A DNA stretch of 54,622 nucleotides, the filler included, from Sphacelaria rigidula (Eukaryota), in the NCBI GenBank assembly GCA_964200075.2. It is 5 parts of 5 records of this genome, joined end to end, with 100 filler letters (N's around TTAATTAATTAA, not from the genome) between each part and the next. Parts side by side here need not be neighbours in the genome. Positions count along the whole stretch, not along the records: positions 1 to 10,845 come from CAXNAA020005810.1; 4 more parts are not named here. One strand, 5' to 3'. The notes beneath the pieces are model-generated. The model was not told where the DNA came from. It ran no database searches and worked only from the letters and a program-made list of their open reading frames with translations. Made by a program: the position numbers and the translations under genes. Below are positions 1-54,563 of the stretch, one piece after another (positions within the stretch are counted from its first letter, which is position 1; each line of letters begins with the position of its first letter).

Positions 1-2193
1 AGAGATATGCCCCTTCAGCCCCATATTTTGTTTGAACCCCAAAATATAAAATCGGCTGTTATTTTGTACGTTGAACGGTATCGAATGCGAGAGAAGAATC
101 GTCACGATGGCTTTAGAATTAGAAGTTCTTTGACGTTCAAGATTTCTTTGCCGGTTTGGAGTCAGGAGACTTGTTTGGGGCATCGGTTTGAGAATTGGGC
201 GTCAGCTATCGCTCCGTGACTCGGAGCTGTGCAAGTAGCATGATCGCGTGTTTATGATGGACGTTTTGGATCCCTTGCGAGTTGTTCGGAAATTGAACAA
301 GCTTGCATGGCTGTTATCGTATACTGTGGTAGGGATTGCCACTCTATGTGAAAATTGACGGTAGACTTCGGCAACAATGATGTCTGAGTTTATCAAGCTC
401 TAGGTTGGCTACTTGTTGGTGGTAAGCGAGCCTTGGGAGTGTTGTAGACTCCGGGCAACATTGTTACCTGGATTCGGTACATGACTGAAGTGAAGAAAAT
501 GCATAGCAGGCGTTTATAGGCTGGTTGATGGATAACGGGTCTAAGAATATGATCGGTGGACTCCGTGATGTATGATGTATGCAATACGAGGTGAGTCGGT
601 CACGTCTGCTTAACTAAGACATGCTGTTTGTGTAACTGTTTGAGTCTTGAAGTCTCTGGAGCCCGTGACAGGGAGAAAGCTTCTGGAGCAGCACTGTGAC
701 CTTGTTCTGATTTCAGACAAGTCTATAGTCCACACTGCTGTGCTGTACAGCTTGAGCTGGTGTTTACGGTGAGACACCGGTATGGACCTCACGATTTTAT
801 ACGTGAAGGTTTTGAAACCCCGTAGTCCCGAGTATGCCATATCAATACCGAAACACTTTTTCGATTAAACACGCAAACCATTCTGATCGTCACGGTATAT
901 TCTGCACGGTGATGACGATATGACGATCACAACAATAAGCACGGTTTAGTGCTGTACTGAACTGTAAGATACCGTGCAGGACAGTACCATAGCGTGCTTA
1001 TATACGTGCGGTGCAATATTCTGCAGAGTTCACGCGGCACATGCGCTACGTATGGCTAAATAAAGTGGATACCTGTAACTTTGGGTACATGGGGGTGTTA
1101 TGTACCGTCAGCTACTGTAGACGTCACGACGCCCGCTCTTGCAGCATGCGCACAAGTGCAGTCAGTAGGACGTGAAAGGGAAGCGGGAAAAGTACAGTAC
1201 AGATAGCACATGACAAAATATTTGTATGTTTTCTGCTCCAAGTGCGACGTGAAAAGGACTTGAACAGTGTGCGCAGCTTGGTCTGCCTGCACTGTTGTCC
1301 ATAACTGCGTATGCAAGAAGCCGCCGGTTATTGCCCGCACCCTACCACGCTCAGTTCCGTCGCCGCGATCTCCACCATGACAGAAAATGCTCAAGTTTAA
1401 ATTTCCACCAACAAGACATACATCATACCCAACTACGGCAGTGCGTGTCTATGTCCCTGTGCCCAACTCGTGCTCTTTGCTGCAGGGTTGTGGTTGTCGC
1501 TGCGGGAATAAGTGGTATGGGGTTTGCATGGTACAATCTGTGAAGACCGGGTGACACATATATCTGGCGTGATGATCCATACCACAGAATTATTGCTGGG
1601 GTCCCAAAGGTGCCCTGGAAGCAGTTAGCCTACTTCTCATGTAAAACAAAATGAAACTTGTTGAAAAGAGCGTTTTTGGCCCTTCTCCGTCGTTTCCCCC
1701 CCGAAAAGAGGGCTAGGCGAATGTTGACACTTTTGAATTACTTGCTCTACTCACTGAGGTCGTTCCAGAGCACCTTTGTGTTTTCCGTAGGTCACGGTTC
1801 CGTTTTTGGCCAAACTTTCATTTTCAATAACGAACGGTCAACTGACGAAAATAATGTTAGTTTTCCCCCTGATGTTGAGAACTTGACCGTTTGTTATTAG
1901 GGTGCAAGTTTGGCCCAAATCGAAAATGTGACCTATACGGGAAACGCAAAGGCGCTCTGATGGAACGGTCTTCGCGAGTAAAGCAAGCTATATCAAGGTG
2001 TCAACATCCGTCTGACCCTCTTTTCGGGGGAAAAACGACGGCATTTTTTCCCATATACATAATAAGAAGTAGCCTCAGGACACAAGTGAACAAGTGTAAA
2101 TTGACACGTTGGAGGATACTGCACGGCTATGTCCTTCGGAGTCGCAGCAAGTGCCCTAGAGACCATACGTAGTCGGTCCTTCCTCCAGCGGAG

Positions 2194-2250
2194 TGATGAT
2201 CATATTTCCCTCTGATGCTCATATTTCTCTCTGATGTTCATATTTCCCTC
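2194..2250. repeat. 19-bp tandem repeat x3
   Basis: TGATGATCATATTTCCCTC / TGATGCTCATATTTCTCTC / TGATGTTCATATTTCCCTC. Confidence 0.9.
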
Positions 2251-3357
2251 TAGGGGAAGTTTATAAAAACCACGTGCTCCAAAGCACCATATTTTTGGTA
2301 CTCTGGAGGGATTCAGACCTCAGGTGTCACTGGAGCGTTAGATGCCCTCCAGAGGATTCGTTTTATGACCGAGACTTAGTATGAAATACCCTCTATCGCG
2401 ATTTTTATCCTTCGGAGGGTCACTTTACCCTCGAAAGGGTGGAAATCGCGATAGAGGATTTTCAAACACGAGCCGACGAATGGCCACGTGTGCATTGTGT
2501 GAAGCCGAGCGTATGTTTGGTGTCATGAAGACGCATATTAGCCTGGTGTCCTGCCGCTTCAGACCCGTTGTCGAGTCTGGCTATCTGCATTTCTGGCTAT
2601 TCGTATTTAGAGTATTCTAAGACCCAAGACTGCAGGTATGTTCAGATTTGGTCAGGTACGAGTGTGAATCTGTATATGGCAGAGACGAGGTTGGCTCGAG
2701 CGTGCCGTTGTGCGAGCGAGACCCACCTTCTCTCACTACCATCTTCTACCCTCTTCCAACAAAGAAGTCCAACATCGGTGAGACTGATTGACTGAGTGTG
2801 AGATTGGGTTGATTGATTGGATACTGGAAGGTAGAGACCAGATAATAAAGAAGAGAATACTGCGCGTGAGACCATCTTACCCCGACACACTGTGTGAGGG
2901 GCTGGTGCTGGACCGTACGATCTGTCGATTGTCCACTTTGCCTTGTAAGACTGTGCTTGCTATAACAGCGTCGCAACCTCATTACATTGGCGTTTGACTA
3001 AGGAGCTTCTTCTTTTGGCAACTGCGTTTCCCTTCTAGACACCGATTGCATCCCTGTTTGTCGAGCTGCGTGCGCGTAGCTTTTGCTGCATTCTTTCATC
3101 TTGTGGATTTTGCATTTTGGTAGCCGAACCTACCTAGACAGCTTGCGAGATAGTCAGTTGTTATCTACTGCGAAGCTTTCAACCTGTCCGCTACACCGTA
3201 CATAGTACTCGTGACTTGCAGCTTTTGCTGCTTGCTGCTTGCTCTACTTGCTGCTTGCTGCAGCGTTTGACTGCACGCCTTGGGCACGGTGGATCCACTC
3301 GCATTGTCGCACCAACCCTGCCTTGTCGTGTTGCTCTGTATCTAAAGATACAATATG

Positions 3358-4795
3358 TAATGTATATTGCCCGCTCAAGATATCGACGCGTTGGGTGGTC
3401 AATATATATCGGGCGACCAATATGATGACACGAGAGAGGGTATATATATATATATATTGCCATCAATATGTCAAGGTTCGCGACATGCAATATATATTGA
3501 CCGAACAATATATCACGACACGCGCCACCTCAATATATATCGGCCGAGGAATATGTTGGTGCGAGAAGGTACCAATATATATATATATATATTTGTTGAG
3601 TAATATATTGGCTGCTACACGAGGTCAATATATATTGACGATTCAGTATACTCTACACCCGAAGCGCCACTATATATTGTCGCTCCAATATGTCGTGCGT
3701 CAATGCGTACAGTATGTATTGGGCGGACAATACACGAGGGAACCGACGGTCGCAATACATGTTGGTGTAGCAAAATATATTGATTTTCAACATATATATA
3801 TATTGGAAAGTGTACTGGAATTAGTTTGGTGGACAGTTCTTTGTTCGCGGGCGCCATTCAAAGACGTATTTTACATGCCGAAAATGCTCAATGCATTCCT
3901 CCGCAAGGGTGTTCAATATAATATATTGGCTGCACAATAGCTATCCAATCAACGTGCGCAATATATATTGGAAACACACTACTTCTGCATGGTTCGCTTT
4001 CAATATATATTATGGTAACAATATGCTACGCATCGCCTCGACTCAATACATATTGACACTTCAATACACACAGCCGGCATGCACAATATTTATTGAATGT
4101 TTCATTATCGGATCAACTGCATGTCCAATATATATTGACATACGTTACTTCATGATCATGACACGAGCAATATATGTTGTTGCTTCAATATCTCCGAGGA
4201 CATCTCATCACAATATATATTGGAAGGACAATATTTGCGCTGGCTCCGATACTGAGTATTGGTATCATATTGGAACATATTACATTGTCCAGGGTATAAG
4301 GAACACAGCCCTGGTGACCACAGGGGTACCAAAAGGCGCATATCGTCCCGCGTTCTCTGTCGTCGTGATGTTGAGCCAAGATATTCATATTACATGCTGG
4401 AAAGGAAATGGTCGGCCCCGTACCGGTGGCCAGATAGGTATCAATAGGCATATATACCGGGTCACCTCTTATATCACCATATTTTCTGACCAGTATACAT
4501 GTATATATACATCAAACGCATTCGACAACTTTCCGGAGTAATGCACGCGAACTTCTGCGGCTCCCTTTGAAGCTTTTCCCAATCTACACGGACTCCGGCA
4601 CCCCTCGCGTCTGGATCTTTCTCAAAGCGTACACCATACCTATAACATCCAATATATATTGACCGGCCAATACATTGGCACCCACGAAGACCCAGGGTAT
4701 GTTGATCGGTCGATATGTTCTCAACAACGCGACTCTAATATATATTGGTCGTGCAATATGCTGTCGCCCGCGCTACCCCAAAATATATAATTAGG
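3358..4795. repeat. Repeat-spacer array, unit CAATATATATTG-N6-CAATAT-N(16-19), ~42-nt period, ~22 units in three blocks
   Basis: 12-mer palindrome or close variants at 3358, 3400, 3488, 3531, 3573, 3626, 3668, 3710, 3753; 3959, 4001, 4044, 4084, 4126, 4168, 4211; 4650, 4693, 4736. Most are followed 6 nt later by a CAATAT-like hexamer. The intervening sequences differ from unit to unit. Confidence 0.9.
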
Positions 4796-5163
4796 ACACT
4801 ATTTAAGGAGGATGTATCAAAGGGGGGACAGATTAAGGAAGAGGCTGTCCCAAGAGATGTCGTCCTGATGCCGAGGGAACTCCGAAGCTGACGATGATTT
4901 CCTCTTGTGAGATGTAGGCAAGAAGTGGGTCAGACACAGAGTGGTCGCTGGAGGCGACCGGGTTCCTCGGGGGATGTTGGACTGTCCTGAATATTGGGCT
5001 CTTCCTGGCATCACCCCGAGTTGTCTAGTTTCCTTGGCATTTCAGGGTCCTCGGGGAATCTGGTCCTTCCGGAACGTTCCTACCTCGTTTCTGCTTGCAC
5101 TGGGTCTGTATACATGTGTAACATCAGTTTCTGATATGTCACTGCAAAGGGATATCTCCCACA

Positions 5164-5177
5164 TTTCCCCCCCCCTT
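5164..5177 (-). promoter_or_regulatory. Polypurine tract immediately before the 3' LTR (LTR starts TGTGGGAGAT at 5163, reading leftwards)
   Basis: The - strand reads AAGGGGGGGGGAAA-TGT, downstream of the integrase; this is a typical PPT/LTR junction. The far LTR boundary was not determined. Confidence 0.75.
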
Positions 5178-5929
5178 ATGCGCCGGAAGCCTATCGAGGC
5201 TATGGCTGATGGGACGAGGCGATCATCAGCTTCGTTGATGATATAACCATGGCAATATCCATGAGTGACTATCATTGATTACGTCACGCCACCACTACTT
5301 CGCAAAGGCAGCCCTTCTCTATACTATGGTATTGAGCAAACACCTCCAGTAAATTTTAGCTACCTGAGGTCTGTAACAGTGCATGTATTGCAAACCCTGT
5401 TTATTTTGGTTTTCTGTCATGTAGTTGTCATATGTGACATGTTTCTACCAGATGTATTTGCACTTAGGTGCTGGTTGCCTCTGTTGGTCTACATGACTGG
5501 GCACTGGGACACTGATCGATCCACGGGCGCCTGGGTTATTCACGCCCGGGTACTGGGACACCTTCGGTTCCCCTGACACCTGCGTGGGACTACGTCCTTG
5601 CGTTAGTACCAAAGCGGTGGATACGATGTTTTCGGTCTGTGAGAATTGTGCTTTTGTCTAAACATCGCAAAATGACCCTTACTTCCTGTCAGCAACTACC
5701 CTCATTGCTGAGAGGTGATCTTCCTTGGGAAGTTTCACCTCCGACACCGCTGACATGTCAGATCTCGTTCTGTTCATGTCCGTATTGTTCTAACGTTGTT
5801 GACTCTCATTAATCTCCGAATTTTGACCCCAGGCTACTGTTCAACCCTTGAGCGTGTTGCGAAGGCGCTCGCACAGTCTGTTGAGCAGTCACGTCCGTTT
5901 CCGTTTCCCTGTAGTCTTGAATTTCAAGT

Positions 5930-7536
5930 CCGGATGTGAGCGTTCAGCTAACCCGTTGTCATGACGGTACTTATCAATGAGATGTCTGCATTGCGGTATT
6001 TCATCCGCACGGTAGGTCACGTCAGCCGCTGGCCGTAACCTTTGAGTCTCAACCGATATTTATAGTTATGGCTACTCCTCCAACCTGGGCCTGGCGCATA
6101 ACCTACCACTTTTTCGACGGTGTAGCGTTCTATTGCGGGCAATGTTCCGTCTGGTTGGTCTATCTCTGGTAGGGGTATCTGTCTACCCAAGAACAGCTCG
6201 CTCAACTTGTCAAAGTCTGGTGCTGGTGCGGTTTCTCGCGGGTGATATTTCTTCAGATGCGCGAGGTGTACCGATCTTTCCTTAGAGCCGTCGCCTATTT
6301 TGATTTTGTATACAACCGGCGATCGCCTCTCGGTTATCGTAAATGGACCTCTCCATGGTAACTGGAGTTTTGGATTCGGCCCTTCTGAGTCTCGAAATGG
6401 TCGATACAAGAGTACTTTTTGCCCCGGTTTGAACACTGGGAAAGATTTTAATTTGTTTCTGTTTTCTTGCTCGTTCGCCCTTTCTCGTAAGGCTTGTCTC
6501 GCGATTTCAAATCCAAGCTGTAGGTTTTCCCGTGTTTCCTTGGTAAATTCCTCGGGTGTCGCCGCTTGGCTCTCTTCTGGTGTGCCGAGAATCATGTCCA
6601 CTGGCAACCTGGGCTTTCTTCCAAACAACAGAAAATGCGGTGTCTCTTGTACTGTGTTATGATAAGAGGTGTTGTACGCCATTTGGACGAATGGAAGCAG
6701 GGATGCCCACTTTTTGTTTCCGATTGACATATGCATCGATAACTCATGTGCATAGTGGAGTGGACGCGTTCCGACACTGAGTTGCCTTGCGGACGTAGTG
6801 GGGTCGTACTTGCCTTATCGAAACCTAACTCTTGTTGCAGTGCGTATATGAATGTGTTCTCAACCTCGGCCCCTTGATCGCTGTGGAGCTTCATTGGGAT
6901 GCCAAATGTTGTAAAAACTCTGTCGATAAGGGTTTTGGCTATCGCCGTGGCTTGTGTATTCGGGACTGGAATGAGCAAAGCATACCTTGTGAGGTGGTCC
7001 ATTACTGTCAGTACGTATTTTCATAGTACTCCGGCGGTGGACATTGAAGCCGTTTTGTATTCAACCAGGTCAACCGACACTCGTTCATATGGCCTCTCTA
7101 CTGGAATGTGTCCCGTTGGCAATTTTTGCCGGCGGGGCGTCTTTTGGCGTTGCCAACTCTGACATTTTAAGCACCAATCCTTGATATCGCGGTTCATTGA
7201 TGGCCAATGATACTTCGGTCGGATTTTGTCGTATGTTCGCTTGAATCCTACGTGGTACGCATGTAGCACCAAGCCTATTAGGGTCTTAGGTAGCACAAGT
7301 TGGTCACAAACTGTGCTTCGTTTTTTCAAGTGTCTCGGCAAGTAAGATTTGAATAAAATCCCGTCATGTGCTGAATAATGTGACATCAATGTGAGCGTTT
7401 CTTTTTCTGGTATCGGAGCATCTTTTCCCGTGATATATTCGATGTAGGGACCGTACTCTAGTGCTTGCTCTTCTCGCATCTTTTTGCGGTTGATTGACGT
7501 GAAGACGTTCGCTGCGCTTACGTGTACTGATTTCAC
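5930..7536 (-). pseudogene. Gypsy integrase (zinc finger, DDE core, GPF motif) + C-terminal chromodomain-like region
   Basis: HAYH..YHWPSM..WCLKCQS; VSVDLV, DHLTRY, LHSDQG, GNSVSERVH; WASLLPFVQMAYNT; WRGPF; YTVEKVV...YRLRLKGY, then after a 1-nt frameshift at ~6030 PAADVTYRADEIPQCRHLIDKY. Confidence 0.93.
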
Positions 7537-7699
7537 GGTGAAAACTCTCGATCACTTTGCACCCGTTTCAAATTGTCGAGCTTTTCAGCTGAAATCTGGA
7601 ACTGATGTTGTGGCTTAGCTATCTGTAACTCAGGGTTTTCTGGGACGTTACGGCATATCGGCGCAAGCAACGGCTTGATTTCTGCTTCCTGTCGCTTTT

Positions 7700-8420
7700 C
7701 AAACGCAAATAGCCGTGAGAGGGTGTCCGGTATAACATGAAGCTTCCCCGGTTTATGTTTGACCGTAAAATCATACGATTACAATGCGATCGCCCATCGG
7801 GTCAACATATTACTTGTATCCTGCATCGCATACAAATATCGAAGAGCGGCATGGTCTGTTACACACGTAAAGTGACGTCCCCAGAGAAAAGCTCTGAAAT
7901 GTTGAATCGCTAGTACGACCGCGTGACATTCTTTCATGGTGGGCGAATAGCGGGCCTGGGCGTCGTTGAAACGTTGACTGAAGTATGCTACGATTGCCTC
8001 GTCTTCGCCTTTCCTTTGGGAGACGTAGGCCCCGGACCCACGGTCTGAAGCATCAACGTTTATGATGAAGTCTTTCGTGAAATCTGGAAAATGAAGGACG
8101 GGTGCCTCAGTCATCAATTTTTTAATTTTCTCGATGGCTTCATCATGTTCAGTATTCCAGAGTTTCGACACTTGTTTTGCCGCCCCTTTTTTTGTGAGAT
8201 CTACCAGTGGTGCTATGGTTGTAGCCAAGTCTAGTATGAATTTCCGTACGAAATTTATTGTACCCAGTACTGATCTCAGCTCTTTGATATTTGTGGGTTT
8301 CGGCAAGTCGAGGATAGTTTTTATTCTTTCATCACTCACTCTGATGCCATCTGCGGACAGTACATGACCCAAATATTTGACTTGCTTCGGACCAAATTGG
8401 ATTTTTGTCGGTTTAGTGTA
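7700..8420 (-). pseudogene. Gypsy pol: RT thumb/connection + RNase H
   Basis: VKYLGHVLS, ELRSVLG, APVLHFPDF, NVDASDRG, MKECHAV, TDHAAL, LTRWAIAL, followed after a break by KHKPGKLHVIPDTLSR. Confidence 0.95.
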
Positions 8421-10315
8421 AGACCTGCTGTTTGCAGTGCTTGCAACGTGCTTTTTAGTAGGGTGAGATGACTCTCCCAGCTTGATGAACAACAAATTAT
8501 GTCATCCACATATATTAGTAAGCCACTCTTAGATCCGAAGTGTGCAAATGCTAGTGCCATTATGCGTGATAAGATAAAGGGTGAACAAGCTAAACCAAAT
8601 GACAGCTGGTTGAACACCCATTTCCCTCTCTGAGTTACAAACGCTGTTTTCTCTTTTTCGCTTTCCGCTACTGGTATCTGGTGGAACGCACTTTGTACAT
8701 CGCAAACTGTTATGAATTTCGCCCCCGCTGCTGTATCTATGTGACTTTCGATAGCTGGCATGGGCCATGATTTGCGAATCAAGTTTTTAGTTATCGTTGC
8801 TCGATAATCTGCGCAAAATCGTGCGGTTCCATCTGCTTTTGCGACTATTGTAACTGCTGATCCCCGCGGGCTTGGGCGTTGTTCTACTATACCATGTTTT
8901 TCCATTTGGTCGACGCATTTATCGATTGCACCTTGCACTCTGGGGTTTGCTCTGTATGGTGCTCGGTCTACCGGCTGAGTCCCAGGTTTGAGCGGGAAAC
9001 GTGCTTCATCCAACGTACAACAGCCCAAATCCTGCGGATGAAGTGAAAACACAGAACGGTTTTTCGCGCAAAGACCCAGTATTTGAGAGCATTGTTCCGG
9101 GGAAAAAGTCAGATTTTCGAAAGCTTTGCGTAAAGCCGGACGTAATTCCTCTTCCGCATTTTTTCTCTCTGACACCTTATTTCCCGCCATTGCACTGACT
9201 GTAGCTGGTTTTGTTTCTCGTACTGGGGTGATATAGCCTAAAATCGTATTTCGTTTCAGGTTCACATGTCGATTCGACGGATTCGTGATTTGTACCATGG
9301 CCGTCTTATTTGTTGCCGACCATGTGCACACCATCCTTGCAACGATGATGCGCGTGATTGCTTGGGGTACATCCGTTGATCGAATGTCTTCTTCGGTTAT
9401 AATGCGTTGCTCTTCGACGGCTGCTGTTGTTCTTGACGGGGTATTTCCCGTTTCAACTAATACGGCCATCTCACTCTGCGGGGGCACGTTGCATTTCTTC
9501 GTGAGAAAAACTGGAACAGCGTTAGAACAGTTCACACTGACTACAGAACAATGTGTCGTTCCGGGGTGTGTTGTATTTTGTGAACGCCGTTGTTTTCGGT
9601 GCGATGCTTTGACTTTTACCCTGGAATCGTGGAATGTTAGCTCTTCCGCTTGCCAGTCGAGTATAGCTTGGAAAGCACTCATAACGGAATTGTCCAGTAA
9701 AAGGCAATCCGGTCCTAGGATAGGTAATACGAACGCTTCTACTGGTAGGATTTTTATCCCTAACGTAAGTTCAAAACGTATGAAACCTAGAATTTTCATG
9801 GGTGAGCCGTCGGCACTCCTGAGGTCTATCGAACCTGGCGGTACTGGTTTTATATCAGCTGCCATTATGGCCGGGTGTTCATCGATGAACGTTTTGCTGA
9901 TACAGGGCACGTCTGCTGCGGAATCGATTGTGATTTTTTCAGCGGGAGTGCCGTTTACTCTGGCTGTGACTCTCACACGGGCTGATGCGCAGGACAGTGC
10001 TAAAGGTGCGACTGTATATCTGGCAAGCGAAGATGCGTTGTAAGAACCATAACAGTGATCATTTAGGATCGGGTTTGAAAACGAAGATTGGTGTTTCGGT
10101 TTTTTATTTTCCTGCAATGAGTTACTCACAAAAGCCGCCTGCGGAGCTAAAAATATACGTTGCGTCTGTTCTACGCATTCACTATTTGTACTCTGCTCTC
10201 TGCTGCTATACTCCTGCTCGTGCACATCCCGTACATGGTTGACCTCTACCCGAGACCTCTTACGCCTTCTACGTGGTTGGTCTGCCGTACTGTCAGAAAA
10301 ATGAAACTCTCCCAA
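8336..10315 (-). pseudogene. Gypsy pol: aspartic protease + reverse transcriptase (N-terminal part)
   Basis: Protease motif ITIDSAADVPCIS; RT motifs ARFCADYR, DVQSAFHQIPV, KTAFVT, LSFGL, IYVDD; frameshift near 8420 into the next ORF. Confidence 0.95.
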
Positions 10316-10426
10316 CTTACGAGCCAGAGGGTTGGCGATTTCGCGTCCTTTTGTTTCCCTCGATTTTCTGGGTAAGGATTTACCGTTTCTGCCCTGATCA
10401 GACGAGGGGTCTTCTCTTGGGCGCCT

Positions 10427-10720
10427 TCATGGGTTGTACTTTTTAGCAAACTCTACATGGCTCTGCATAAGGCGGCAATCCGCTGTCTCGTGTGTGTTTT
10501 TGTACCTGCATGGTGCGTACTCACAACGGACCAATTTTTTCGTTTTACCGCTCAACTGCTTGTCGTTGGATGTACTCTTATCGTTACTGTCTTTGAAGCG
10601 TACTTTTTTCAACTCTCCCCTGATCTGTTCGCGCTCCTGTCTCTGCTAGCAGACCGTTTCTCCGCTCTCCCTCTCTCTCCTTTGATCGCTTTTAACTGCG
10701 ACTGAAGATCCGTGAGGATT
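10427..10720 (-). pseudogene. Gypsy gag C-terminus with zinc-knuckle-like motif
   Basis: CEYAPCRYKNTHETADC (C-X4-C-X5-H-X4-C) directly upstream of pol; frame-disrupted. Confidence 0.65.
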
Positions 10721-10845
10721 GCGCCATGATCGGCCATCATTTCCGCTAGCTGTGGACGTGGGGAATTTACAGTTGCGGCCGAGACATGGGGAGTGTCTCC
10801 CGTTTGGTTTGGCCATGTGCGAAGATTGTTTTGTTCGTGTTTTTT

Positions 10846-10945
10846 NNNNNNNNNNNNNNNNNNNNNNNNNNNNNNNNNNNNNNNNNNNNTTAATTAATTA
10901 ANNNNNNNNNNNNNNNNNNNNNNNNNNNNNNNNNNNNNNNNNNNN
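10846..10945. other. Artificial contig-joining linker (N44-TTAATTAATTAA-N44)
   Basis: Exactly 100 nt; the TTAATTAATTAA core puts stop codons in all six frames; the same linker recurs every ~10,945 nt. Confidence 0.98.
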
Positions 10946-11419
10946 CGCGAACCCGTGGTCACAGACGTAGGCTCGCCTTCCCAATACCGTCCCTGCTATT
11001 CCTCACCACACATTACCAAAATAAAGAAAAAATAAGAAGAGCGACGCCACGAATCCGGTGAGAAGTAGCTCCTCCGAGTTCAACGGGGAGAGTTAGTAGA
11101 GAGAAGACGTCTATATTTCCGCATTATAGAAACGCTCTTGATGGGTAAACGATACTTGGCTCTTCTCTTCTCCCTTCCCGCCCAAGATACAACCGCGCGT
11201 TTTCCAATCCAGAGGAAAAAGCCTACCAACCGACCATGCTTCCTGCTTTACCTCACCCCCGATATATGAGGGCTGACATCGATTAGTCACGACAATGTAA
11301 AACATGCCACCCACTTCTTGAGCTAGGAAAATAAATTGCCGTTTTTTTCGCTTGCGTTTTTTTTTTTTGGCGGGGTGGAGAACCCAAACTCCGCTCAAAA
11401 GGGCATCATCGCACCAAGT

Positions 11420-11740
11420 AGTGGTTGGATGGTGAAACACCCACCAGACGGTGTGTAACCCGTGGCTGTCTCTGGAAGTGCCGATACCAGAAAATGAAGC
11501 AACTCATCGTAGGCTGTCATCCATATGCAACAATCAGTACACTTCGGGCCGAACAATCGTACACGGATGCAGCTCACCCTTCATGTGGCTCGCCGAGCAC
11601 AACATGGCAATTTGCGCTTGGAAATTAATTGCGAGCCTGGTCCGGCAAAAACCCGGTGCGCTCCGTTTCGGCTTTCAAGGAACGCGAGGTCAATGATGAT
11701 ATGACTACGGCGAGCAAGATGATGAATGCAACCCCCCCAA
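11420..11740 (+). repeat. Interspersed repeat, family A copy (SINE-like or unclassified)
   Basis: Reverse-complement homology to 38475-38800; translations GETPTRRCVTRGCLWKCRYQKMKQLIVGCHP vs GETPMRQCMSRGCLRERRYQILNHLIVGCHP. A shorter fragment lies at ~15095-15150. Confidence 0.85.
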
Positions 11741-12631
11741 CCCTGTAAAAACTGAAGCTTCTTCACCACTTCGTTGAAAAATGGGCTGATGATTTTGAAA
11801 CTACAATCTCGGCCCTCAACGCAGATCAAAAGACCTCCGTCAGCGATGGGCCATGCTGACAGAGTACCTGCGCATATGGAGGCGTTTGTGCACCATTCAT
11901 CACAGCAAGCATCTTCCCTCTGGAGCTGCCCCCCCTTCCCCCTATGTTATGTGCAACAACCTTCAGAAACCGCAACACCCTGTGAAGCTGTTGTATAGGG
12001 AAGAAATAGGCACCTTTGAGGCAGGACAAACGTCTACATTCCTATAAGAAGTGGAGCTCAAGATCGGGGCTACAAACCAGTGCTGATTTGAGCATAACGT
12101 GTGCTGCGCGGGCGTTGGTTGAGGTAGTCCGTCGCATGTCGCTGGATGGCCTCTTCGCTCAGCGGAATTGCTCAGGGCATACCAAGTATATGCAACAGCT
12201 CGAACTATTATTTTTGTTGTTGTTGTTGTCTTCACATTCAAAACCGTTCCGATATCTGCACGGTACATTCGTACTGGGCATCTGATGCGGACGCCTTCCG
12301 TGGTCACAGGCTAGCAAAACCCCCCCCCAAAAAATTAGACCCAGATTACAGCTCACAAAACGCGATACAAGCAAAACAGGAAGAAACGAGGAAGAAAAAA
12401 GAGAGTACATACGAACTGCTCAAGGATATTCTTTTTTGCAACCGCAATGCCAGACTAAGTCCCCCCCCCCGCTATTCTACTCTTGTCCATAATGTACACA
12501 AAGACGACGAGACGAGCACACGGTATAGAGGTGGGAACAACACACTACACTCCTATGTACTTTGTGGCTTGCGCGTTTCTCTTTTTGTTTTCCGTGTGCC
12601 GTCTCTTGTTCCATTTCGTACAAAAGCTAAC

Positions 12632-12772
12632 CTTTGGAGAGCATCCTGAGGGTTTCGAGATCCTCCACGATGTTGCTGGCCTTGTTCGTCACCAGTAGCA
12701 AGAACAGATTTTCGATCGGCTGGTATACGTAGCGCACCGACTCTGTCTCGATGAAGGTATGCTGTTTGTTGC
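12632..12772 (-). CDS. ARCN1: Coatomer subunit delta (delta-COP), internal exon of the longin domain
   Basis: cag|...|gttagc boundaries, 141 nt, phase 1/1; encodes (G)[46 protein letters not shown], a hallmark delta-COP sequence. Missed by the ORF track. Confidence 0.95.
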
Positions 12773-13259
12773 CTGGAGACGAAGGGAATGATGGGGGAGG
12801 TGAAGGGGGGGGGGGGATTTACAGCTGGGTCAAACTCGATCCATGTCAAGAAAAATTAACTCAATGTCAACACAGGTTCATCCCTGATATCTGAGATCCA
12901 CCTGTAGCACACTTAAAAAGAATTGTTATTGAACCCAGGTGCATTTCGCTATCCACGTGACATGATTGTGACGTAATTAGTGGAGGGTGAGTGTGGGTGA
13001 GGGAACATGATGCGAGAACAGAAAGTAACCGAAACCTCTTCAGGTTGGCTGAGTGGAGGCGGAGAACAAACATACGAAAACCCATTGAACCAGCTTGGTC
13101 GATAAAAAAACGAAATATTTTTCTATCGCAGACGAAGCAATTACACTCAGCAGATTAGACTAACAATATCCGTGACCAATACAGTGTAACCCTCTGAACG
13201 TAAGATGACACGCGACAACAGGTGGTGAGTAGGAGAGGGGGTACACCATGCCAAGATTG

Positions 13260-14240
13260 CAAGGTTGTGTTCTGTAGGGTACGGTTTTCTGTATACTCGG
13301 GGTATTTTGTCGGGTATTTACCGTACCCGACAGTTCTGTGGCTTCTGTAAGACTTTCATACCATTACCCGACAGTTCTAGAGACCTTCATACCCTCACCC
13401 GATAGTTCTATGAGTTCTGTAAGCCTCCCGTACCGTTACCGGGGGGCACGGGTACGCTCTTGACGAGATACCTGATTGCGGGTACGGTTTTCTGTGCAAC
13501 CTCCATATCCTACCCGTCAGTTTCTGTGGGTTCTATTAGCCTCCCATACCCTTACCCGTAAGTTCTGTGAGTATTCTGTACGAAAACTTTACCCTAACCC
13601 GAGGGGCGGGTATGCCCTAAAAGAGCTACCCGATTGCCGGCACCGGTTTTCTGTACGCCTCTCATACCGTACCCGACGAGTTCTGTAATTTTTCACGGTA
13701 AGGGCGAATCACGAGTCGTATGAGGTCACTCCTCGTGACATGGCAGGAGTCAACCTGTATTCAACAGTTCATCCCGCATGCACCCGACGGTGAACAACAT
13801 ATGCAATGCCCATGTCATGAGAAGATTCGACGATTTGCCGACTCTTCGTCCCGCACGACTCATACGCCTGGCATAGATGTAAATGCCATTCACGCTTCAT
13901 GGCAAGTGTGGGTGGCATGTACAATCGGTTCATTCCACATTTTTTACAGGGGATTAGTATGTAACTATGATCCACCCCCTATGATCTGGAGGTAGGAAAC
14001 AGGAACCGTTGGCACTTTACTGCACAACACAAGACCTCAAAGCCTGTATGAAGTACAACTGATGTACGAATCGCATGATTTATTCGTTGAAATGAGTTAC
14101 ATGAGTTCAATCACGATATTACTTGTCCTGACCGTGTAATTTTTGCAAGAGTTTCATACCGGTACCCGACAGTTCTGTAAGTTCTGTAAAAAATCTCATA
14201 CCCTACAGAACGTACCCGTACCTTACAGAACACAACCTTG
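13260..14240. mobile_element. Non-autonomous hAT-like DNA transposon in a delta-COP intron
   Basis: TIRs CAAGGTTGTGTTCTGTA..GGTACGG / CCGTACCTTACAGAACACAACCTTG; imperfect 8-bp TSD CAAGATTG / GAAGATCG; subterminal TACCCGACAGTTCT repeats. Confidence 0.8.
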
Positions 14241-21790: not shown

Positions 21791-21890
21791 NNNNNNNNNN
21801 NNNNNNNNNNNNNNNNNNNNNNNNNNNNNNNNNNTTAATTAATTAANNNNNNNNNNNNNNNNNNNNNNNNNNNNNNNNNNNNNNNNNNNN
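21791..21890. other. Artificial contig-joining linker
   Basis: Same N44-TTAATTAATTAA-N44 structure. Confidence 0.98.
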
Positions 21891-23847: not shown

Positions 23848-23882
<35 letters not shown>

Positions 23883-24487
23883 CTCTCCCCCCCTCACACG
23901 TTTGCATGCCGTTNNNNNNNNNNGGTGCGCGGGCCCCCCCCCCCATTTTTTTTTTCAAACGGGGATGATGGCGAGAGAAGCCAAGACACTCCACCCTCGG
24001 GCGTTTGTTAGGCAAATGTTGGTGACGAGGTGCTTGTCATTGTACGCTGCCAAAATTGCTCCTGTGTAAGCGCTCTCTTGTAGGGGTATTTTGGTGAAGT
24101 TCGTCTCTAGCAAATGCTGGATGGCCCACTGCCTCTTGTGTTGCTGCACCTTTGGACTAAAGTAAAGTAGAGTAGTAGACTACACTGTCCAGTGACGTAA
24201 CACCACAGTAGGATCATTCGATTTTCCTACGTGTTTGGGCCTCGCTCTTCCCAGCTGTTTGATGACTGTCCGCTATCGGACACAAGTCATACAGGGGGGA
24301 TTTGCCATATCTCAGGCATACACGCTCTGCGAAACATTCATTGTCACCCGGGCGCTGGAGAAGTAATTTCAATAGTTGACTGGGTGAACGTGCAATTCGG
24401 ACACATTTTCCACGCGTATAATGAGCAGTGCGATTTTTTCGAAGCTCACCGCATGGCTATCGTTCGCCCACGTGCTCTCTTTGGCAG

Positions 24488-27579: not shown

Positions 27580-27945
27580 ACTCACTTATGCTGTATACCT
27601 CACCGGCCGAAAATATGCACGTCTGAGGTATCTTCTACAAGTCACCCGACCAGAATGTCCACCGCTGATTCATTTGCTATAACTCACCTGGCTAGAATGT
27701 GCACCACTGAGCTATCTTCAACAAGTCGCCCGGCCAGAATGTGCACCGCTGAGTTATCATCTATATCTCATACGGCCAGAATATGCACTACTGAGTAATT
27801 TTCTATATCTCGCCCGGCCAGAGTATGCACAGCTAAGTTATGCTATATAACCCACCGAATCGGAAGATGCACCGCTGAGTTACCTTACGTAACATACAGC
27901 GGAGTCATCGGAAAATGAGTTATGCAGTACAACTCACCCGACCGG
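27580..27945. repeat. 42-bp degenerate minisatellite, ~8 units
   Basis: Consensus approximately CTGAGTTATCTTCTATAACTCACCCGGCCAGAATGTGCACCG; unit starts at 27623, 27665, 27707, 27749, 27791, 27833, 27875; internal inverted repeat GAGTTAT...ATAACTC. Confidence 0.9.
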
Positions 27946-32735: not shown

Positions 32736-32835
32736 NNNNNNNNNNNNNNNNNNNNNNNNNNNNNNNNNNNNNNNNNNNNTTAATTAATTAANNNNNNNNN
32801 NNNNNNNNNNNNNNNNNNNNNNNNNNNNNNNNNNN
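32736..32835. other. Artificial contig-joining linker
   Basis: Same N44-TTAATTAATTAA-N44 structure. Confidence 0.98.
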
Positions 32836-33462: not shown

Positions 33463-34657
33463 CACAGGCACCGTAGGTAAGGTACTGTACCAAGCGTACC
33501 GCCGGTATTTACCGGGGTATCCCATACCGTGGTATGCATAGGTATGGTAGGTATAAGTTTTGAAAATGCCGGATTGGGCGGGTACGGTAGGTATTGAAAT
33601 CTCGAAATACCGTGGTATCGTAGGTATCGTATGTATGAGTTTTGAAAATACCGGATTGGGCGGGTACGGTAGGTATTGAAATCTCGAAATGCCGTAGTAT
33701 CGTAGGTATCGTAGGTACTGTATGGCATTTGAAAATACCGGATTGGGTCGGTATCGGTAGGGTATGAGATGTCCCAAATACCGGTACCGGGTACCTGTAT
33801 CACCCTCTATACCAAATTCAAAACTGTCTTCTGGCAGTGCGAAGCACTTAAGTGCAGTAGTACGCAAGAATAGGGTTTGCCCCTCTATGTCTAGTTGTAT
33901 TTTTTCATTCAGAGCACCCGACAATCGCGCAGTATTTACGGTACATAAATATGGAAGGTGATTTCATTGGTATTTTGGCACATTGTTGTGTATTTTGTTT
34001 GCCTTCTGCGACCCCTTGTTTTTTTGTTTTTCCCCATTTTCGTTTGTTTCCCGCTTGTTTGCTTGCACGTGGAATATTTTTGCGTATCATGCTCATCTGA
34101 CATGGAACAATGTATACCTTCAAATGATTATCTAATATTCATACCCACGTACCAAATAATCAGAGAACATGGGAATAGTTCATTCGAATTGATCCAAACA
34201 CGCAATTTAGGGGGAATCTGGGTATTAATTACTTGTGAAAACAAGATGTGCCTACTGTGACAGCTTCTGGCCTCGGCGTGGGTTGGCACCAACTGCTGCA
34301 TCGTGGGGAGTGTATCGCGTTCGGGAAATACCGGGGGTATACCCGGTATTTACCGGGGTATCCCATACCGTGGAATCGTAGGTATCGTAGGTATGCGTTT
34401 TGAAAATACCGGATTGGGCGGGTACGGTAGGTATTGGAATATCGAAATACCGTGGTATCGTAGGTATCGTAGGTACTGTATGACATTTGAAAATACCGGA
34501 TTGGGCGGGTACGGTAGGTATTGAAATCTCGAAATACCGTGGTATCGTAGGTATCGTATGTATGAGTTTTGAAAATACCGGATTGGGTCGGTATCGATAG
34601 GGTATGAAATGTCCCAAATACCGGTACCGGGTACCTACCTTACCTACGGTGCCTGTG
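33463..34657. mobile_element. Non-autonomous hAT-like element with duplicated internal tandem-repeat blocks
   Basis: Perfect 22-bp TIR CACAGGCACCGTAGGTAAGGTA; 8-bp TSD GAGTTCTT / GAGTTCAT; two same-orientation ~300-bp blocks (33500-33795, 34340-34635), each made of 82-87-bp units. Confidence 0.92.
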
Positions 34658-37147
34658 GAGTTCATGTACAAAGCATGTAATGGGACAGCATGTTGGTCTG
34701 GGATGTTATATCCGCCTGACCTATCATCACTGTCGAAGATCCTGGGCAACTTTTGTGACGGATTTTTCGGGCCCTTGGATGCAACCTGTTGTGCTGAAGG
34801 TTTCCCCTTGACTAGCCAAGCAGCGAGCCTATTTCGAGATTAAAGCATGAAATACTAATGCTGTAGCTTGGGGGTGAATACTGGAATGAATAACACCATC
34901 AACTCATCGAGAGCTGCACGCGCAAAGAAAAAATGTCCGCATTTTGCAGTTTGTTTCTGTCGAAACAATCTCACGTCGTTGTGTATTCGTCACGGTCTTC
35001 TTCCCCAAACTGCACTTTTATAACTTCGGGTTAGTATTGGTCCAATCTTGAGCGTCAAACGCTCCCGGCGAAGGATGCGATAAATGTCAGAGCAAATACG
35101 TTTATCTGACCCTGCTTGACCTTTCGAATGTCTCTTGTAAGCGGCTAGTGTTTTCGAAAGATCCATGACGGAAATGTTTGCATTACCACATTTTTCGTTG
35201 ATGCAGGTTGATGCTCAAGTAGACGCCTGCTTTGTGAGGAAATGCCCGGAACTATTGTACAAGTTTCACCTGGGTTAAGGCTAGGATCCTTATTCTTTTT
35301 CATAATTGTTTGTTCACATTTGCTGTTGAATCAACGAATCCCGTCGGTCATTTTAGGGAACATATAATACGCATATTTTGGCACAAATACACATCCTTCT
35401 ATCCAATGACTGCAGAACAATACTACCACCAGTACCACGTTCGTTGAGTTTGGGTATAATATTTCCAAGGGTGGAGATTCAGCCTCGCCCCGTGTTGTTG
35501 ATCTTTCTCCGTAGTCCTAACACTGAAAACAAGTACTTATGACTCTGCCCTCAAGTCCAGTAAGCAGCACACTCCATACTAAGATCAAGGAATGATTATA
35601 CTCCACACTCAATTCATGTAGCCAGTGCACAGCACACTGAAATGAAGTACTGACTACATGTCTGCCCCTGGATCCCAACTCACCCTCTCCTTTTTTCATA
35701 TTATGAGCGATTTCGGCGTGTGTTTTTTAGGAAGAAACTGACCTACGCCATAGTAACCTGTACTTTATTAAGAAAAAGGGCACATTCCAGTTGTCGTTTA
35801 CACCACACAAATTACCAGGTAAACTGAACATATGGTCTAGCCGACACTACAGGATGAGTGCGTTTTTCCACTAGTTTTTACAGAAAATTCAGCCAACCTG
35901 ATGTGTAATTGTTCACGCTTACCTACATCCAAGCCCTCGCTTTCTGTGGTGCATACATGAATTGTTGTCTCATCTATGACTTTAATACGAGCAGAGTATT
36001 ATAGCGATATCACAAGTATGATGGGCGTCCGCAGCAAGCTATATCATGTTATACATAGCCGCGAACGCAGATATTTTCCTATACTGTGTCATGAGGTGGG
36101 TTAGCAGCGACGAAAGTGCATCACCCGGCAACTTCCGAGGCGTAGTGTTTCTTCATTTGATAAACGAGTACTAAAGGCACCATTCGGGCGACGAGCAATT
36201 TCCTTCGAAACAGTCTGCGAGTATTGTCTGTCCAGTGTTTCAGAGCGTATAGTTCACCTACCACAGTGTTATTGATGGCTGACGATGGTATTCAAGCAAT
36301 TGTTTCCTGTGATACGATGCGTTTCATTCCGATATGGTGTCTTCTACAAGCATATTTTCCGTGGCTGGAAATCATCAACGTTTGGCGTCTGGGACGGTGG
36401 AATTTTTAGTCTGCCTGTACCATTCGCTGCAGTAGACAAGATGATGAAAAATCTTGCAGTTACTGTGTCTTGACGGACGGGTGCATGCCGTGGGGTAATA
36501 ATCCTCATGAAATCGCTTCGAGGGGGGCCCATGTCATTTTGTCAGGTATCGGTATATCCACCCCCATTGATCTTCTATCGTACTACCTTCTTTTTTATGT
36601 AGAGTGCCTCCACCAGCCTTTGATTCCAGGCTGATTCACGGTGCCTGCTGGCCGTATAGTTTGCCGCATGGAGAACTTGACATGCACGGGTGATGTTCAA
36701 CATGAATAATTCGCCAGCTGAAACGCACACTTGACCCTAGACCTCTTGTATCTTCGTGCATGCAGCCTTTAGTGTGCGGTACTAATGTGCGACAGCATGA
36801 GGCAAGCAATACACCACGAACGGCGAAATCCTTGTCCGTTGCACAGAGTGCGCTACCTTCGGAATCGGCGTCGTCTGAACTTCTATTTATCATACACAAA
36901 GGTGGAAGATGACGCTGAATTCGCAAAAAAATCTCCGTATTATAATTATCGCGACCTGTAATCTTCCAGATATCAGTTGCTCCCTGGAGATCTAAACTGC
37001 GTGCGCAAATCCTTCCACAGAGATCCCTCAAATAGTTTTGGGACAATCGCATGTATATGCCATGCTCCAAGATCCAACACTAATGACGTACTGCTCACAG
37101 AAATATCAATCGACACTTGCTTCGTGTGAACGATTGAATCTTGCCAG

Positions 37148-37315
37148 GTGACGGACTGGACAAATACAATTGTCGACAATTGTCTCAAGGAGCTACAGTC
37201 ACTCAACAAGCCGTATAAGTACATCATCACATCAATCATCATGCAGAAAAACGGAGCCGGGGTCAACACATGCGCGTCGATGGTGTGGGATCCGTCAAAA
37301 GACAATTATTGCCAG
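37148..37315 (+). CDS. DYNLT1: Dynein light chain Tctex-type, internal exon
   Basis: cag|...|gtgaac boundaries, 168 nt, phase 0/0; VTDWTNTIVDNCLKELQSLNKPYKYIITSIIMQKNGAGVNTCASMVWDPSKDNYCQ is the Tctex-1 signature. Confidence 0.93.
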
Positions 37316-38054
37316 GTGAACAGACTGAGGAGAGTCGCTACCGACGCCAGCGGGCGGAAGGTACACACACAGATTAACGGAAATTACGCGCACCGCAAGT
37401 GCAATCAATTGAAGAAGGGGCACACAGGGTGGCGCGACTACCGCAAAGATCGGGTGCGGTTCGTTTTGCAAGAATTGCGCTCGACTGATCTTACATGTCA
37501 TGATTTCCGGACATCATCCAAGAATGTTAGTGTTGTCGCATCGTGCAGCAATCCCGGAGCTACTCGCTTGTTGAGTTCATGGGACAACGTTTGCTTTGCG
37601 GTCCTTCCAAAAGCGATAGACGCATAGTGCAGTGCCAATTACTTTTACCTCTGCATACGTTTTTACATTCGTACGAGATACATACGCTCCCCTCCTTGCC
37701 CTCGACCTCCTGGTTGTCCGTTGACTTCAATCTGCACTGAACACGTGATCCACCGCACGCAGAATACGAGTGCAGAGTGGCACAGTGAAGGAGCCCAAAA
37801 CGCCACTTCACTGACGCGCTTCTGAGTTCCTCGAATTCCTTGAAGCAGCCGACGAAATCAAAGCTGACTGTGATCGGTAGCCCGTGCAAGCACCTCCCCT
37901 CTTTCGACGTGGGGTCCTTCTCTGATAACAAGTCACACTGCCTGACCGTCTGTCCGCCATCAATATTTGCGTGCTCATGCAGTGGCTGCCCCTATCACTA
38001 GCCACGTCAGAAACGCGACTCCCTGCACTTCCCTCGGTTACATTTATGCATCAG

Positions 38055-38474: not shown

Positions 38475-38800
38475 GTGTGTGTGTACTCATGATCTTGCAT
38501 GCCGTAGTCGTATGGCCATTGACCTCGCATCCCTACAAAGCCGGTACGGAGCACGCCGGGTTTTCGCCGGACCAGGCTCGCAATCGACCACCAAGCGCGA
38601 AGCGCCATGATGTGTTCGGCGAGTCGCATGAAGGTTGAGCTGCATCTTGCTAAGATTCTTCGGCTCGAAGCGTACTAATTACCTTGCACATGGATGACAG
38701 CCTACAATGAGATGGTTCAATATCTGGTATCGCCGCTCCCGGAGACAGCCTCGGCTCATACACTGCCTCATGGGTGTCTCACCATTGAAACATTGCACAG
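38475..38800 (-). repeat. Interspersed repeat, family A copy
   Basis: Reverse-complement homolog of 11420-11740. Confidence 0.85.
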
Positions 38801-43679: not shown

Positions 43680-43779
43680 NNNNNNNNNNNNNNNNNNNNN
43701 NNNNNNNNNNNNNNNNNNNNNNNTTAATTAATTAANNNNNNNNNNNNNNNNNNNNNNNNNNNNNNNNNNNNNNNNNNNN
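43680..43779. other. Artificial contig-joining linker
   Basis: Same N44-TTAATTAATTAA-N44 structure. Confidence 0.98.

Positions 43780-54518: not shown

Positions 54519-54563
<45 letters not shown>
54519..54563. repeat. Poly-G homopolymer (45 nt)
   Basis: Uninterrupted G run near the contig end; a poly-C run also occurs at ~23849-23879. Confidence 0.9.

Follow-up and report, generated by a model that had tools for sequence, protein, structure and literature searches.

The locus described here raises the question of what could preserve two short motifs and their spacing through 23 tandem units while the sequence in between becomes nearly random. It is a repeat array at 3358-4820 of a 54,622-nt stretch of DNA (hereafter, the window) from the alga Sphacelaria rigidula (GenBank assembly GCA_964200075.2). 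A preliminary description compared the array to CRISPR (clustered regularly interspaced short palindromic repeats) and TIGR (tandem interspaced guide RNA) arrays, and proposed that it is either a phased protein-binding array that serves a retroelement or a precursor of small guide-like RNAs. The evidence from the sequence favors the first proposal. With a probability of roughly 0.6, we think that this is a phased array of protein-binding sites, in the form of a degenerate tandem repeat of ~42 bp, in the long terminal repeat (LTR) carried by a very abundant algal Ty3/Gypsy family.

The window is a composite of five pieces of ~10.8 kb, joined by N44-TTAATTAATTAA-N44 linkers at 10846-10945, 21791-21890, 32736-32835, and 43680-43779. 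Features on different pieces are not neighbors in the genome, and the real context of the array is 1-10845 only.

An array in which a motif and its spacing are conserved

A weight-matrix scan identified 23 units at 3358-4820, with a period of 40-43 nt, in three blocks. The unit has the pattern CAATATATATTG-N6-CAATAT-N18, that is, a perfect palindrome of 12 nt with a hexamer 6 nt downstream. Each unit holds three CAATAT half-sites: the palindrome is CAATAT followed by ATATTG, and the third half-site lies 6 bp further on. The parts of the array, none of them assigned to a strand, are:

3358-3835: block A, 11 units of CAATATATATTG-N6-CAATAT-N18, two of them with (TA)n expansions of the core
3836-3916: interruption 1, 81 nt without the motif (anchor to anchor, 123 nt, or about 3 units)
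3917-4252: block B, 8 units
4253-4649: interruption 2, 397 nt, non-periodic and without motif matches, within the same high-copy family
4650-4820: block C, 4 units, two of them (4693 and 4779) degenerate in the present copy

The unit lengths are 42, 48, 40, 43, 52, 43, 42, 42, 43, and 41 nt in block A; 42, 42, 43, 40, 42, 42, and 43 nt in block B; and 43, 43, and 43 nt in block C. Thus, the spacing is 40-43 nt in 18 of the 20 between-unit intervals, and the other two (the units of 48 and 52 nt) have a core that is expanded to (TA)8-9. The preliminary description had counted about 22 units at a tight period of 40-43 nt. The period and the approximate number stand, and the 23 units are far beyond chance, but the array is interrupted twice (3836-3916 and 4253-4649) rather than continuous.

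With at most one mismatch, CAATATATATTG occurs 15 times in the window, and every occurrence lies within 3400-4747. In shuffled sequences the mean was 0.12 and the maximum was 2, so that none of 100 shuffles reached 15. Similarly, all 12 occurrences of ATATTG-N6-CAATAT (again with at most one mismatch) lie within 3364-4759, as compared to a shuffle mean of 0.09. Outside the array, the threshold of the weight matrix yielded 5 weak matches in the window, 3 of which are in an (AT)n tract.

We computed column statistics for 21 anchored units; the hexamer (columns 19-24) played no part in the anchoring. The consensus base was kept in 15-21 of the 21 units across the palindrome (columns 1-12) and in 14-18 units across the hexamer. 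At the edges of the palindrome, C1 was kept in 15 units, A2 and A3 in 18, and T11 and G12 in 19. In contrast, the 24 interval columns had just 0.01-0.51 bit. The mean pairwise identity was 0.75 for the 18 motif columns (0.61 for the hexamer alone) and 0.27 for the intervals, which bears out the earlier observation that only the palindrome and the CAATAT hexamer are conserved. The intervals had also been said to differ in every unit. This is nearly correct, but their pairwise identity of 26.7% slightly exceeds the 25.0% of spacers that were shuffled (z 2.9, p 0.0065), which leaves a trace of common origin, and three of the units (3351-3487) are a diverged duplicate of 3481-3625, as found by self-comparison.

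This three-unit duplication allows a comparison of young duplicates. The two unit pairs that match best agree at 32 of 36 positions of the motif, versus 21 of 48 positions in the intervals (p 2.6e-05 by Fisher's test). Put as differences (4/36 versus 27/48), the gap in divergence is more than fourfold. An evenly decaying ordinary minisatellite would not give these values or the identities of 0.75 and 0.27; non-uniform conservation argues against it, as the preliminary description had maintained, and we rejected it. The array is absent from the output of Tandem Repeats Finder, which would be expected with units less than 70% alike.

An unrelated, ordinary 42-nt minisatellite does occur in the window, at 27594-27886 (7 copies, with a higher order of 84 nt and 69-77% matches over the whole unit in Tandem Repeats Finder).

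We also considered three other explanations. The motif is AT-only while the intervals are ~50% G+C, so decay of GC-rich intervals by methylation of CpG might have been involved. We rejected this because the array has no CpG depletion (observed/expected = 1.27). We rejected NF-Y/CCAAT as the selected site because CAAT is preceded by C in 8 of 32 cases. Finally, two overlapping open frames on the plus strand (3215-3940 and 3825-4541; 241 and 238 codons) cross the array antisense to the Gypsy element. They exceed the lengths from spacer shuffles (238 aa, p about 0.001), and there are fewer stops on the plus strand (34) than on the minus strand (52). Nevertheless, we rejected a coding explanation: the motif occurs in each of the three reading frames, the products are of low complexity and rich in Y and I, and Pfam found nothing in them.

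The array apparently lies within the LTR of a Ty3/Gypsy element

To find other copies of the array and its surroundings, we aligned contigs from four sequencing runs (X1, X3, and X4, which are DNA-type, and X6, which may be RNA) to 2600-6400 at 85% identity or above. The four were taken from runs that are labeled as one organism and as an algal metagenome. The features around the array are:

3356-5163, minus strand: putative 3' LTR of a Ty3/Gypsy element, 1808 nt; in the sense orientation it starts with TGTGGGAG and ends with CATTACA, which gives TG...CA ends
4821-5163, minus strand: the non-repetitive 5' part of this LTR (in the sense orientation), with the highest summed depth of the aligned stretch (395,685 at 5013-5139 in X1)
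5164-5177, minus strand: polypurine tract AAGGGGGGGGGAAA, which TGTGGGAG follows immediately
5178-6181, minus strand: non-coding internal region of ~1 kb, from the end of pol to the polypurine tract, without Pfam or tblastn matches
6182-10114, minus strand: Ty3/Gypsy pol (reverse transcriptase, RNase H, and integrase), with frame changes near 8414, 7545, and 6745
10846-10945, no strand: artificial joint N44-TTAATTAATTAA-N44, which ends the piece with the array and cuts the 5' part of the element

The pol region matches the Pfam families RVT_1 (1.3e-20), RT_RNaseH_2 (3.7e-32), Integrase_H2C2 (8.6e-14), rve (2.4e-08), and Integrase_p58_C (5.8e-07). The order on the minus strand is reverse transcriptase, RNase H, and then integrase, which is the order of Ty3/Gypsy elements. 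A protein search with pol found 8 relatives on short contigs, the best with ~60% identity, and tblastn matches of the relatives P0003-P0009 (~60% identity) span 10114-6182. A search with the pol frame for related loci in viral_contigs found nothing. The three frame changes imply that this copy of the element is dead.

The putative LTR lies directly downstream of the polypurine tract, with its TG at 5163 and its CA end at 3356, and the array fills ~80% of its 1.8 kb. The depth of coverage by the contigs also marks an end here. From bin 3235-3361 to bin 3362-3488, summed depth rises from 8,026 to 103,007 in X1, from 1,212 to 13,994 in X3, and from 2,707 to 44,450 in X4. This step (~12-fold, in three runs) puts the boundary of a repeat at the TG...CA end, near 3356. 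Beyond the step, depth remains high over the array, the remainder of the putative LTR, and the end of pol. The array had been placed beside or within a Gypsy LTR. Given the minus-strand pol, the polypurine tract followed by TG, and the depth boundary, it is apparently within the LTR, and it adjoins the Gypsy pol. Self-comparison found no partner for the LTR, which carries no weight because the piece ends inside the element at 10845. A plant-type tRNA-Met primer-binding motif did not exceed chance, with 7 matches versus 3.8 expected, none of them sensibly placed.

The left flank is moderately repeated at 2600-2853 (summed depth in X1 of ~12,000, versus ~1,300 at 3108-3234). The element seems to sit among other repeats.

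Other copies of the family share the spacers and restore the motif

On the aligned 3.8 kb, we found 9,157 contigs in X1, 7,464 in X3, and 8,342 in X4. The preliminary description had called for a check for other copies and for linkage to this Gypsy family. In the three DNA-type runs, the array and its surroundings are at very high copy, with high depth through to the end of pol. Interruption 2 belongs to the same family, with an X1 depth of 61,353-155,800 across its bins. The contigs are 150-200 nt long and are mostly 85-99% identical to the window, spacers included. Since the spacers are common to the contigs of a high-copy family, they are inherited parts of the element and are not specific to this locus. 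The idea that comparison of copies might reveal acquired spacers is not sustained; the copies differ by the gain or loss of units.

Among the best 15 of 191 joints between copies, some skip 42 or 43 nt (such as 3958>4001, 4663>4707, and 4693>4737), others go back by roughly one unit (such as 4693>4652 and 4694>4652), and one (3459>4713) drops most of the array. The number of units thus varies among copies, as in any tandem repeat.

At several positions, the family has the motif where this copy has lost it. G>T at 3379, which is found in 90,220 of 92,698 of the X1 depth, yields the CAATAT that is broken in this copy, and G>A at 4712 in the family restores another CAATAT. The family consensus that continues from 4694 (loose ends of 24 contigs in X1, 23 in X3, and 34 in X4) is an intact palindrome with its CAATAT. 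Conversely, among the best 40 of 498 difference rows, there was no case in which the majority of the family lacks a motif base that is present in this copy.

Unit 4693-4716 of this copy reads CAGGGTATGTTG...CGATAT, versus CAATATATATTG...CAATAT in the consensus from the loose ends at 4694. Both of the listed changes in this unit (4695 and 4712) are A-to-G on the plus strand, and there are further ones when it is read against the consensus. This could be clustered hypermutation or chance.

Tests of a guide-RNA function

The preliminary description noted that ATATTG-N6-CAATAT could form a stem with a variable loop in each unit. Pairing of columns 7-12 with columns 19-24 is indeed found in 84.8% of cells, but partner shuffles gave 83.3%, with 59 of 500 shuffles as high, and one pair has changes on both sides. 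So, the conservation of the two motifs is enough to explain the pairing. We also folded two segments of 291 nt on the minus strand (3480-3770 and 3950-4240) and found that they were no better than shuffles (z of -1.03 and -1.75); the predicted folds of both segments do not use the unit hairpins. A search of 1-10845 against Rfam, with E up to 1, found nothing.

CRISPR loci have adjacent cas genes and carry locus-specific spacers that were acquired from invaders. Their direct repeats are near-identical and ~25-36 nt long, and they alternate with unique spacers of similar size, in the account given in PMC12045711. TIGR arrays are described there as two alternating repeats of 8-12 nt with spacers of ~9 nt (up to 12 nt), processed into units of 36 nt. 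Box C (CCA) and box D (UG) flank the TIGR spacers and covary between repeats, and a neighboring Tas gene encodes a Nop domain (also PMC12045711). The array that we studied is like both systems, as outlined in that source, in that conserved short repeats are interspersed with intervals that vary in sequence but keep a fixed length. The resemblance ends there. In each 42-nt unit, the conserved parts are 12 and 6 nt, which is not a CRISPR repeat, and the intervals measure 6 and 18 nt, whereas TIGR has two of ~9 nt; the unit of 40-43 nt is also not the 36-nt unit of TIGR. The conserved columns spell only CAATATATATTG and CAATAT, without box C or D, and show no covariation above shuffles. And unlike in either system as that source describes it, the context is a eukaryotic retroelement and the intervals are common to very many copies, in contigs of the family at 85-99% identity.

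We compared the 98 open frames of the window to Pfam and found no Cas or Nop families, although eukaryotic genes that are divided into short exons might be missed in this way. This agrees with the preliminary description, which saw no such gene. At E of 0.01 or below, these 98 frames matched only retroelement domains, Tctex-1, and (weakly) HCNGP and DUF6011.

Matches of the intervals to host or viral sequences had been suggested as a test of the guide model, and we found none above chance in the rest of the window or, for four intervals, in viral_contigs. For 21 intervals of 18 nt, the mean minimum mismatch to the rest of the window was 4.57, versus 4.67 +/- 0.15 for shuffled intervals. Four intervals had 2, 1, 0, and 0 exact matches in viral_contigs, none of which extended past the word; these counts look like chance, as an unrelated 18-base pattern scored 6 there. 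The pattern CAATATATATTG-N6-CAATAT matched at least 119 stretches in metagenome_contigs, each with a single site or one overlapping pair and none periodic, and it had 6 single matches in viral_contigs, which we take to be chance; neither scan implies that such arrays are absent elsewhere.

In sum, the framing as a CRISPR- or TIGR-like array is not supported, given the geometry, the spacers that are common to a high-copy family, and the lack of cas/Nop among the frames scanned. Nor is a precursor of guide RNAs supported, with no covariation, no signal from folding, no Rfam family, and no spacer match above chance.

Comparison with other repeats in LTR elements

The closest analog of the array is in the U3 enhancer region of human ERV9 LTR12, where 5-17 tandem repeats of ~41 nt vary in number between copies (PMC11853044). 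The repeats of LTR12 are of four closely related subtypes and have conserved sites for NF-Y (CCAAT), GATA, and MZF1 (G-rich), according to the same source. As in the LTR12 of that account, the units of our array are apparently borne by an LTR, which is long as a result; they are ~40 nt (40-43 nt, with joints of 42-43 nt between copies); they vary in number; and each has a conserved motif. The differences are in the conservation, the motif, and the host. In LTR12 as reported, the whole unit is conserved, while here conservation is limited to 18 of 42 positions, with random identity at the others. The motif here is a palindrome with three CAATAT half-sites, and CCAAT is not conserved. LTR12 belongs to a vertebrate retrovirus, whereas our array is in an algal Ty3/Gypsy element and its placement in U3 is putative.

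The insulator of gypsy in Drosophila contains 12 sites for Su(Hw), with a 12-bp consensus and variable spacers, within 340 bp, and many sites are needed together (PMC2374998). Our array is like this cluster, as reported, in that short sites with a 12-bp consensus and short variable spacers are clustered in a Ty3/Gypsy element. The Su(Hw) sites, however, have a spacing of ~28 bp and lie in the 5' untranslated region, whereas our array has 23 units over ~1.46 kb, at a strict 42 bp, downstream of the polypurine tract. The Su(Hw) consensus, YRYTGCATAYYY, also differs from the motif of the array, and the spacers of the cluster are AT-rich, unlike the intervals here (~50% G+C, with a motif that is AT-only).

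In plants, tandem repeats inside LTR retrotransposons seed satellite DNA (PMC3648361). These are likewise arrays inside LTR retroelements whose unit number changes from copy to copy. They are ordinary tandem repeats with similarity over the whole unit, and in the available text of PMC3648361 there is no report of conservation confined to a motif. As far as these sources describe LTR12, the gypsy insulator, and the plant repeats, the array is set apart from all three by its motif, by its strict four-turn spacing, and by the randomization of its intervals. A full-text literature search for the 12-mer CAATATATATTG found no paper.

A proposed phased array of protein-binding sites

We propose that the array grew by tandem duplication, partly in steps of three units, in the LTR of an active Gypsy lineage. 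In the lineage that replicates, the motif and the spacing would be maintained by purifying selection while the intervals drift, and dead copies would decay after insertion, as may be seen here at 3379 and 4693-4716. A unit with three half-sites, two of which form a palindrome, would suggest a DNA-binding protein that is dimeric or oligomeric. As a period of 42 bp corresponds to four turns of B-DNA, all of the sites lie on one face of the helix, which suits cooperative binding. Bound protein might then affect transcription or chromatin. The likely role is as the enhancer or promoter block of the element, with a probable placement in U3; the next most likely role is as a chromatin platform or insulator.

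If this is correct, then the array is an unusually clean natural case of selection that is confined to a binding motif and its helical phase: ~23 sites have been kept at four-turn spacing, and the sequence between them has been randomized, in very many copies of the element. It would not be a new class of system, as tandem-repeat enhancers in LTRs and the site cluster of gypsy have long been known. It could serve as a test bed for how cooperative arrays of phased sites work in an algal genome, for the protein of the host or the element that reads the triple CAATAT half-site, and for how LTRs spread regulatory or chromatin-organizing sites through a genome.

Several points weigh against this interpretation. 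The LTR is putative, as the piece stops at 10845, inside the element, and provides no 5' LTR for comparison. U3, R, and U5 are not assignable, and there is no clear poly(A) signal and no single TATA site that stands out. With C before CAAT in only 8 of 32 cases, a CCAAT of the NF-Y type is not the selected core. Random-level identity of the intervals requires that the array be very old or that some faster process be at work. The statements about other copies rest on one contig alignment, and on the best 40 of 498 differences and the best 15 of 191 joints. Lastly, microsatellite slippage could maintain the inner ATATATAT of the palindrome, and two units do show expansions; this leaves the conserved edges (C, A, A and T, T, G) and the separate hexamer unexplained.

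Slippage at the TA microsatellite is also central to what we consider the leading alternative, which is unlikely: an old minisatellite without function, in or beside the element, whose motif is kept by slippage together with recombination at the palindromes. This would account for the (TA)8-9 expansions in two units, for a unit number that differs between copies as in any tandem repeat, and for the weak trace of common origin in the intervals (z 2.9) along with the one three-unit duplication. The edges that are not microsatellite (C1 in 15/21, A2/A3 in 18/21, T11/G12 in 19/21) and the hexamer, which is held at a fixed distance of 6 nt in 14-18 of 21 units, are beyond the reach of slippage. Nor does this alternative fit with young duplicates that differ at 4/36 motif versus 27/48 interval positions (p 2.6e-05), or with a spacing that is held within 2 nt despite the random identity of the intervals. 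Also, Tandem Repeats Finder detects the ordinary minisatellite at 27594-27886 (42 nt, 69-77%) and does not detect the array at all. Slightly less probable, in our view, is that the array is a separate high-copy repeat (a satellite or another mobile element) that abuts the Gypsy copy, whose LTR would then be much shorter. In its favor, no LTR pair is visible in the piece, X1 depth peaks at 4886-5266 and is 2-4 times lower over the array, and some X6 contigs part from the window left of 4861-4862. Against it, those X6 contigs by eye still resemble 4832-4861, so they seem to be divergent copies rather than a boundary, and at 4790-4900 there is no depth step and no loose end from the DNA runs among the best-supported rows listed. 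Moreover, the end of the array coincides with the TG...CA-compatible end and the ~12-fold fall in depth, and within the piece the array does not continue on the far side.

The array might instead act as RNA within the genomic transcript, with the palindromes as signals for dimerization, packaging, or export that are recognized by Gag or by RNA-binding proteins of the host. We consider this to be doubtful, and a little more so than a separate repeat. Palindromes do act in the dimerization of retroviral and Ty RNA, a perfect 12-nt palindrome can pair two RNA molecules, and the genomic RNA would contain an LTR array a single time, in whatever part of the LTR the array lies. But the folds (z of -1.03 and -1.75) leave the unit hairpin unused, there is no covariation beyond conservation, and Rfam gave no match in 1-10845 at E up to 1. 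Also, 6-bp stems of A-U only are weak, and phasing by four turns pertains to duplex DNA and not to RNA. Least probable by far is a CRISPR- or TIGR-like array with a transcript that would be processed to small RNAs, in which the variable 18-nt segments serve as guides. Its appeal lies in the unit of two repeats and two intervals, with fixed lengths and random-looking intervals, and in the period of 42 nt, which is twice 21 nt. Against this are intervals that are inherited within a very high-copy element instead of being specific to a locus, the lack of a Cas/Nop family in the 98 frames and of hairpin covariation, a geometry unlike that of TIGR with no conserved CCA or UG boxes in the columns of the array, interval matches that are not above chance (21 18-mers in the window and four intervals in viral_contigs), and scans of metagenome and viral contigs that gave single chance matches among the matches listed. 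We view a retroelement-borne version of this idea, in which the array is cut in a 42-nt (2 x 21-nt) phase, the palindromes are handles for processing or protein binding, and the 18-nt segments are guides, as equally improbable.

Other features of the window

The remaining observations concern other pieces of the window. Two arrays of tandem repeats of 82-87 nt (33524-33761 and 34365-34623), with ~3 copies each, are ~840 nt apart and ~90% alike. There is a C-rich run of 45 nt at 23849-23893 (86% matches in Tandem Repeats Finder) and, on a different piece, a perfect run of 45 G at 54519-54563; these may be artifacts of assembly or of read ends. A 299-nt alignment with 80% identity, in inverted orientation, links 11429-11725 to 38487-38785 on another piece, and is probably another family of dispersed repeats. 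Finally, an open frame at 37130-37624 on the plus strand matches the Tctex-1 family of dynein light chains (4.7e-17), which suggests flagella or cilia in some stage of the host.

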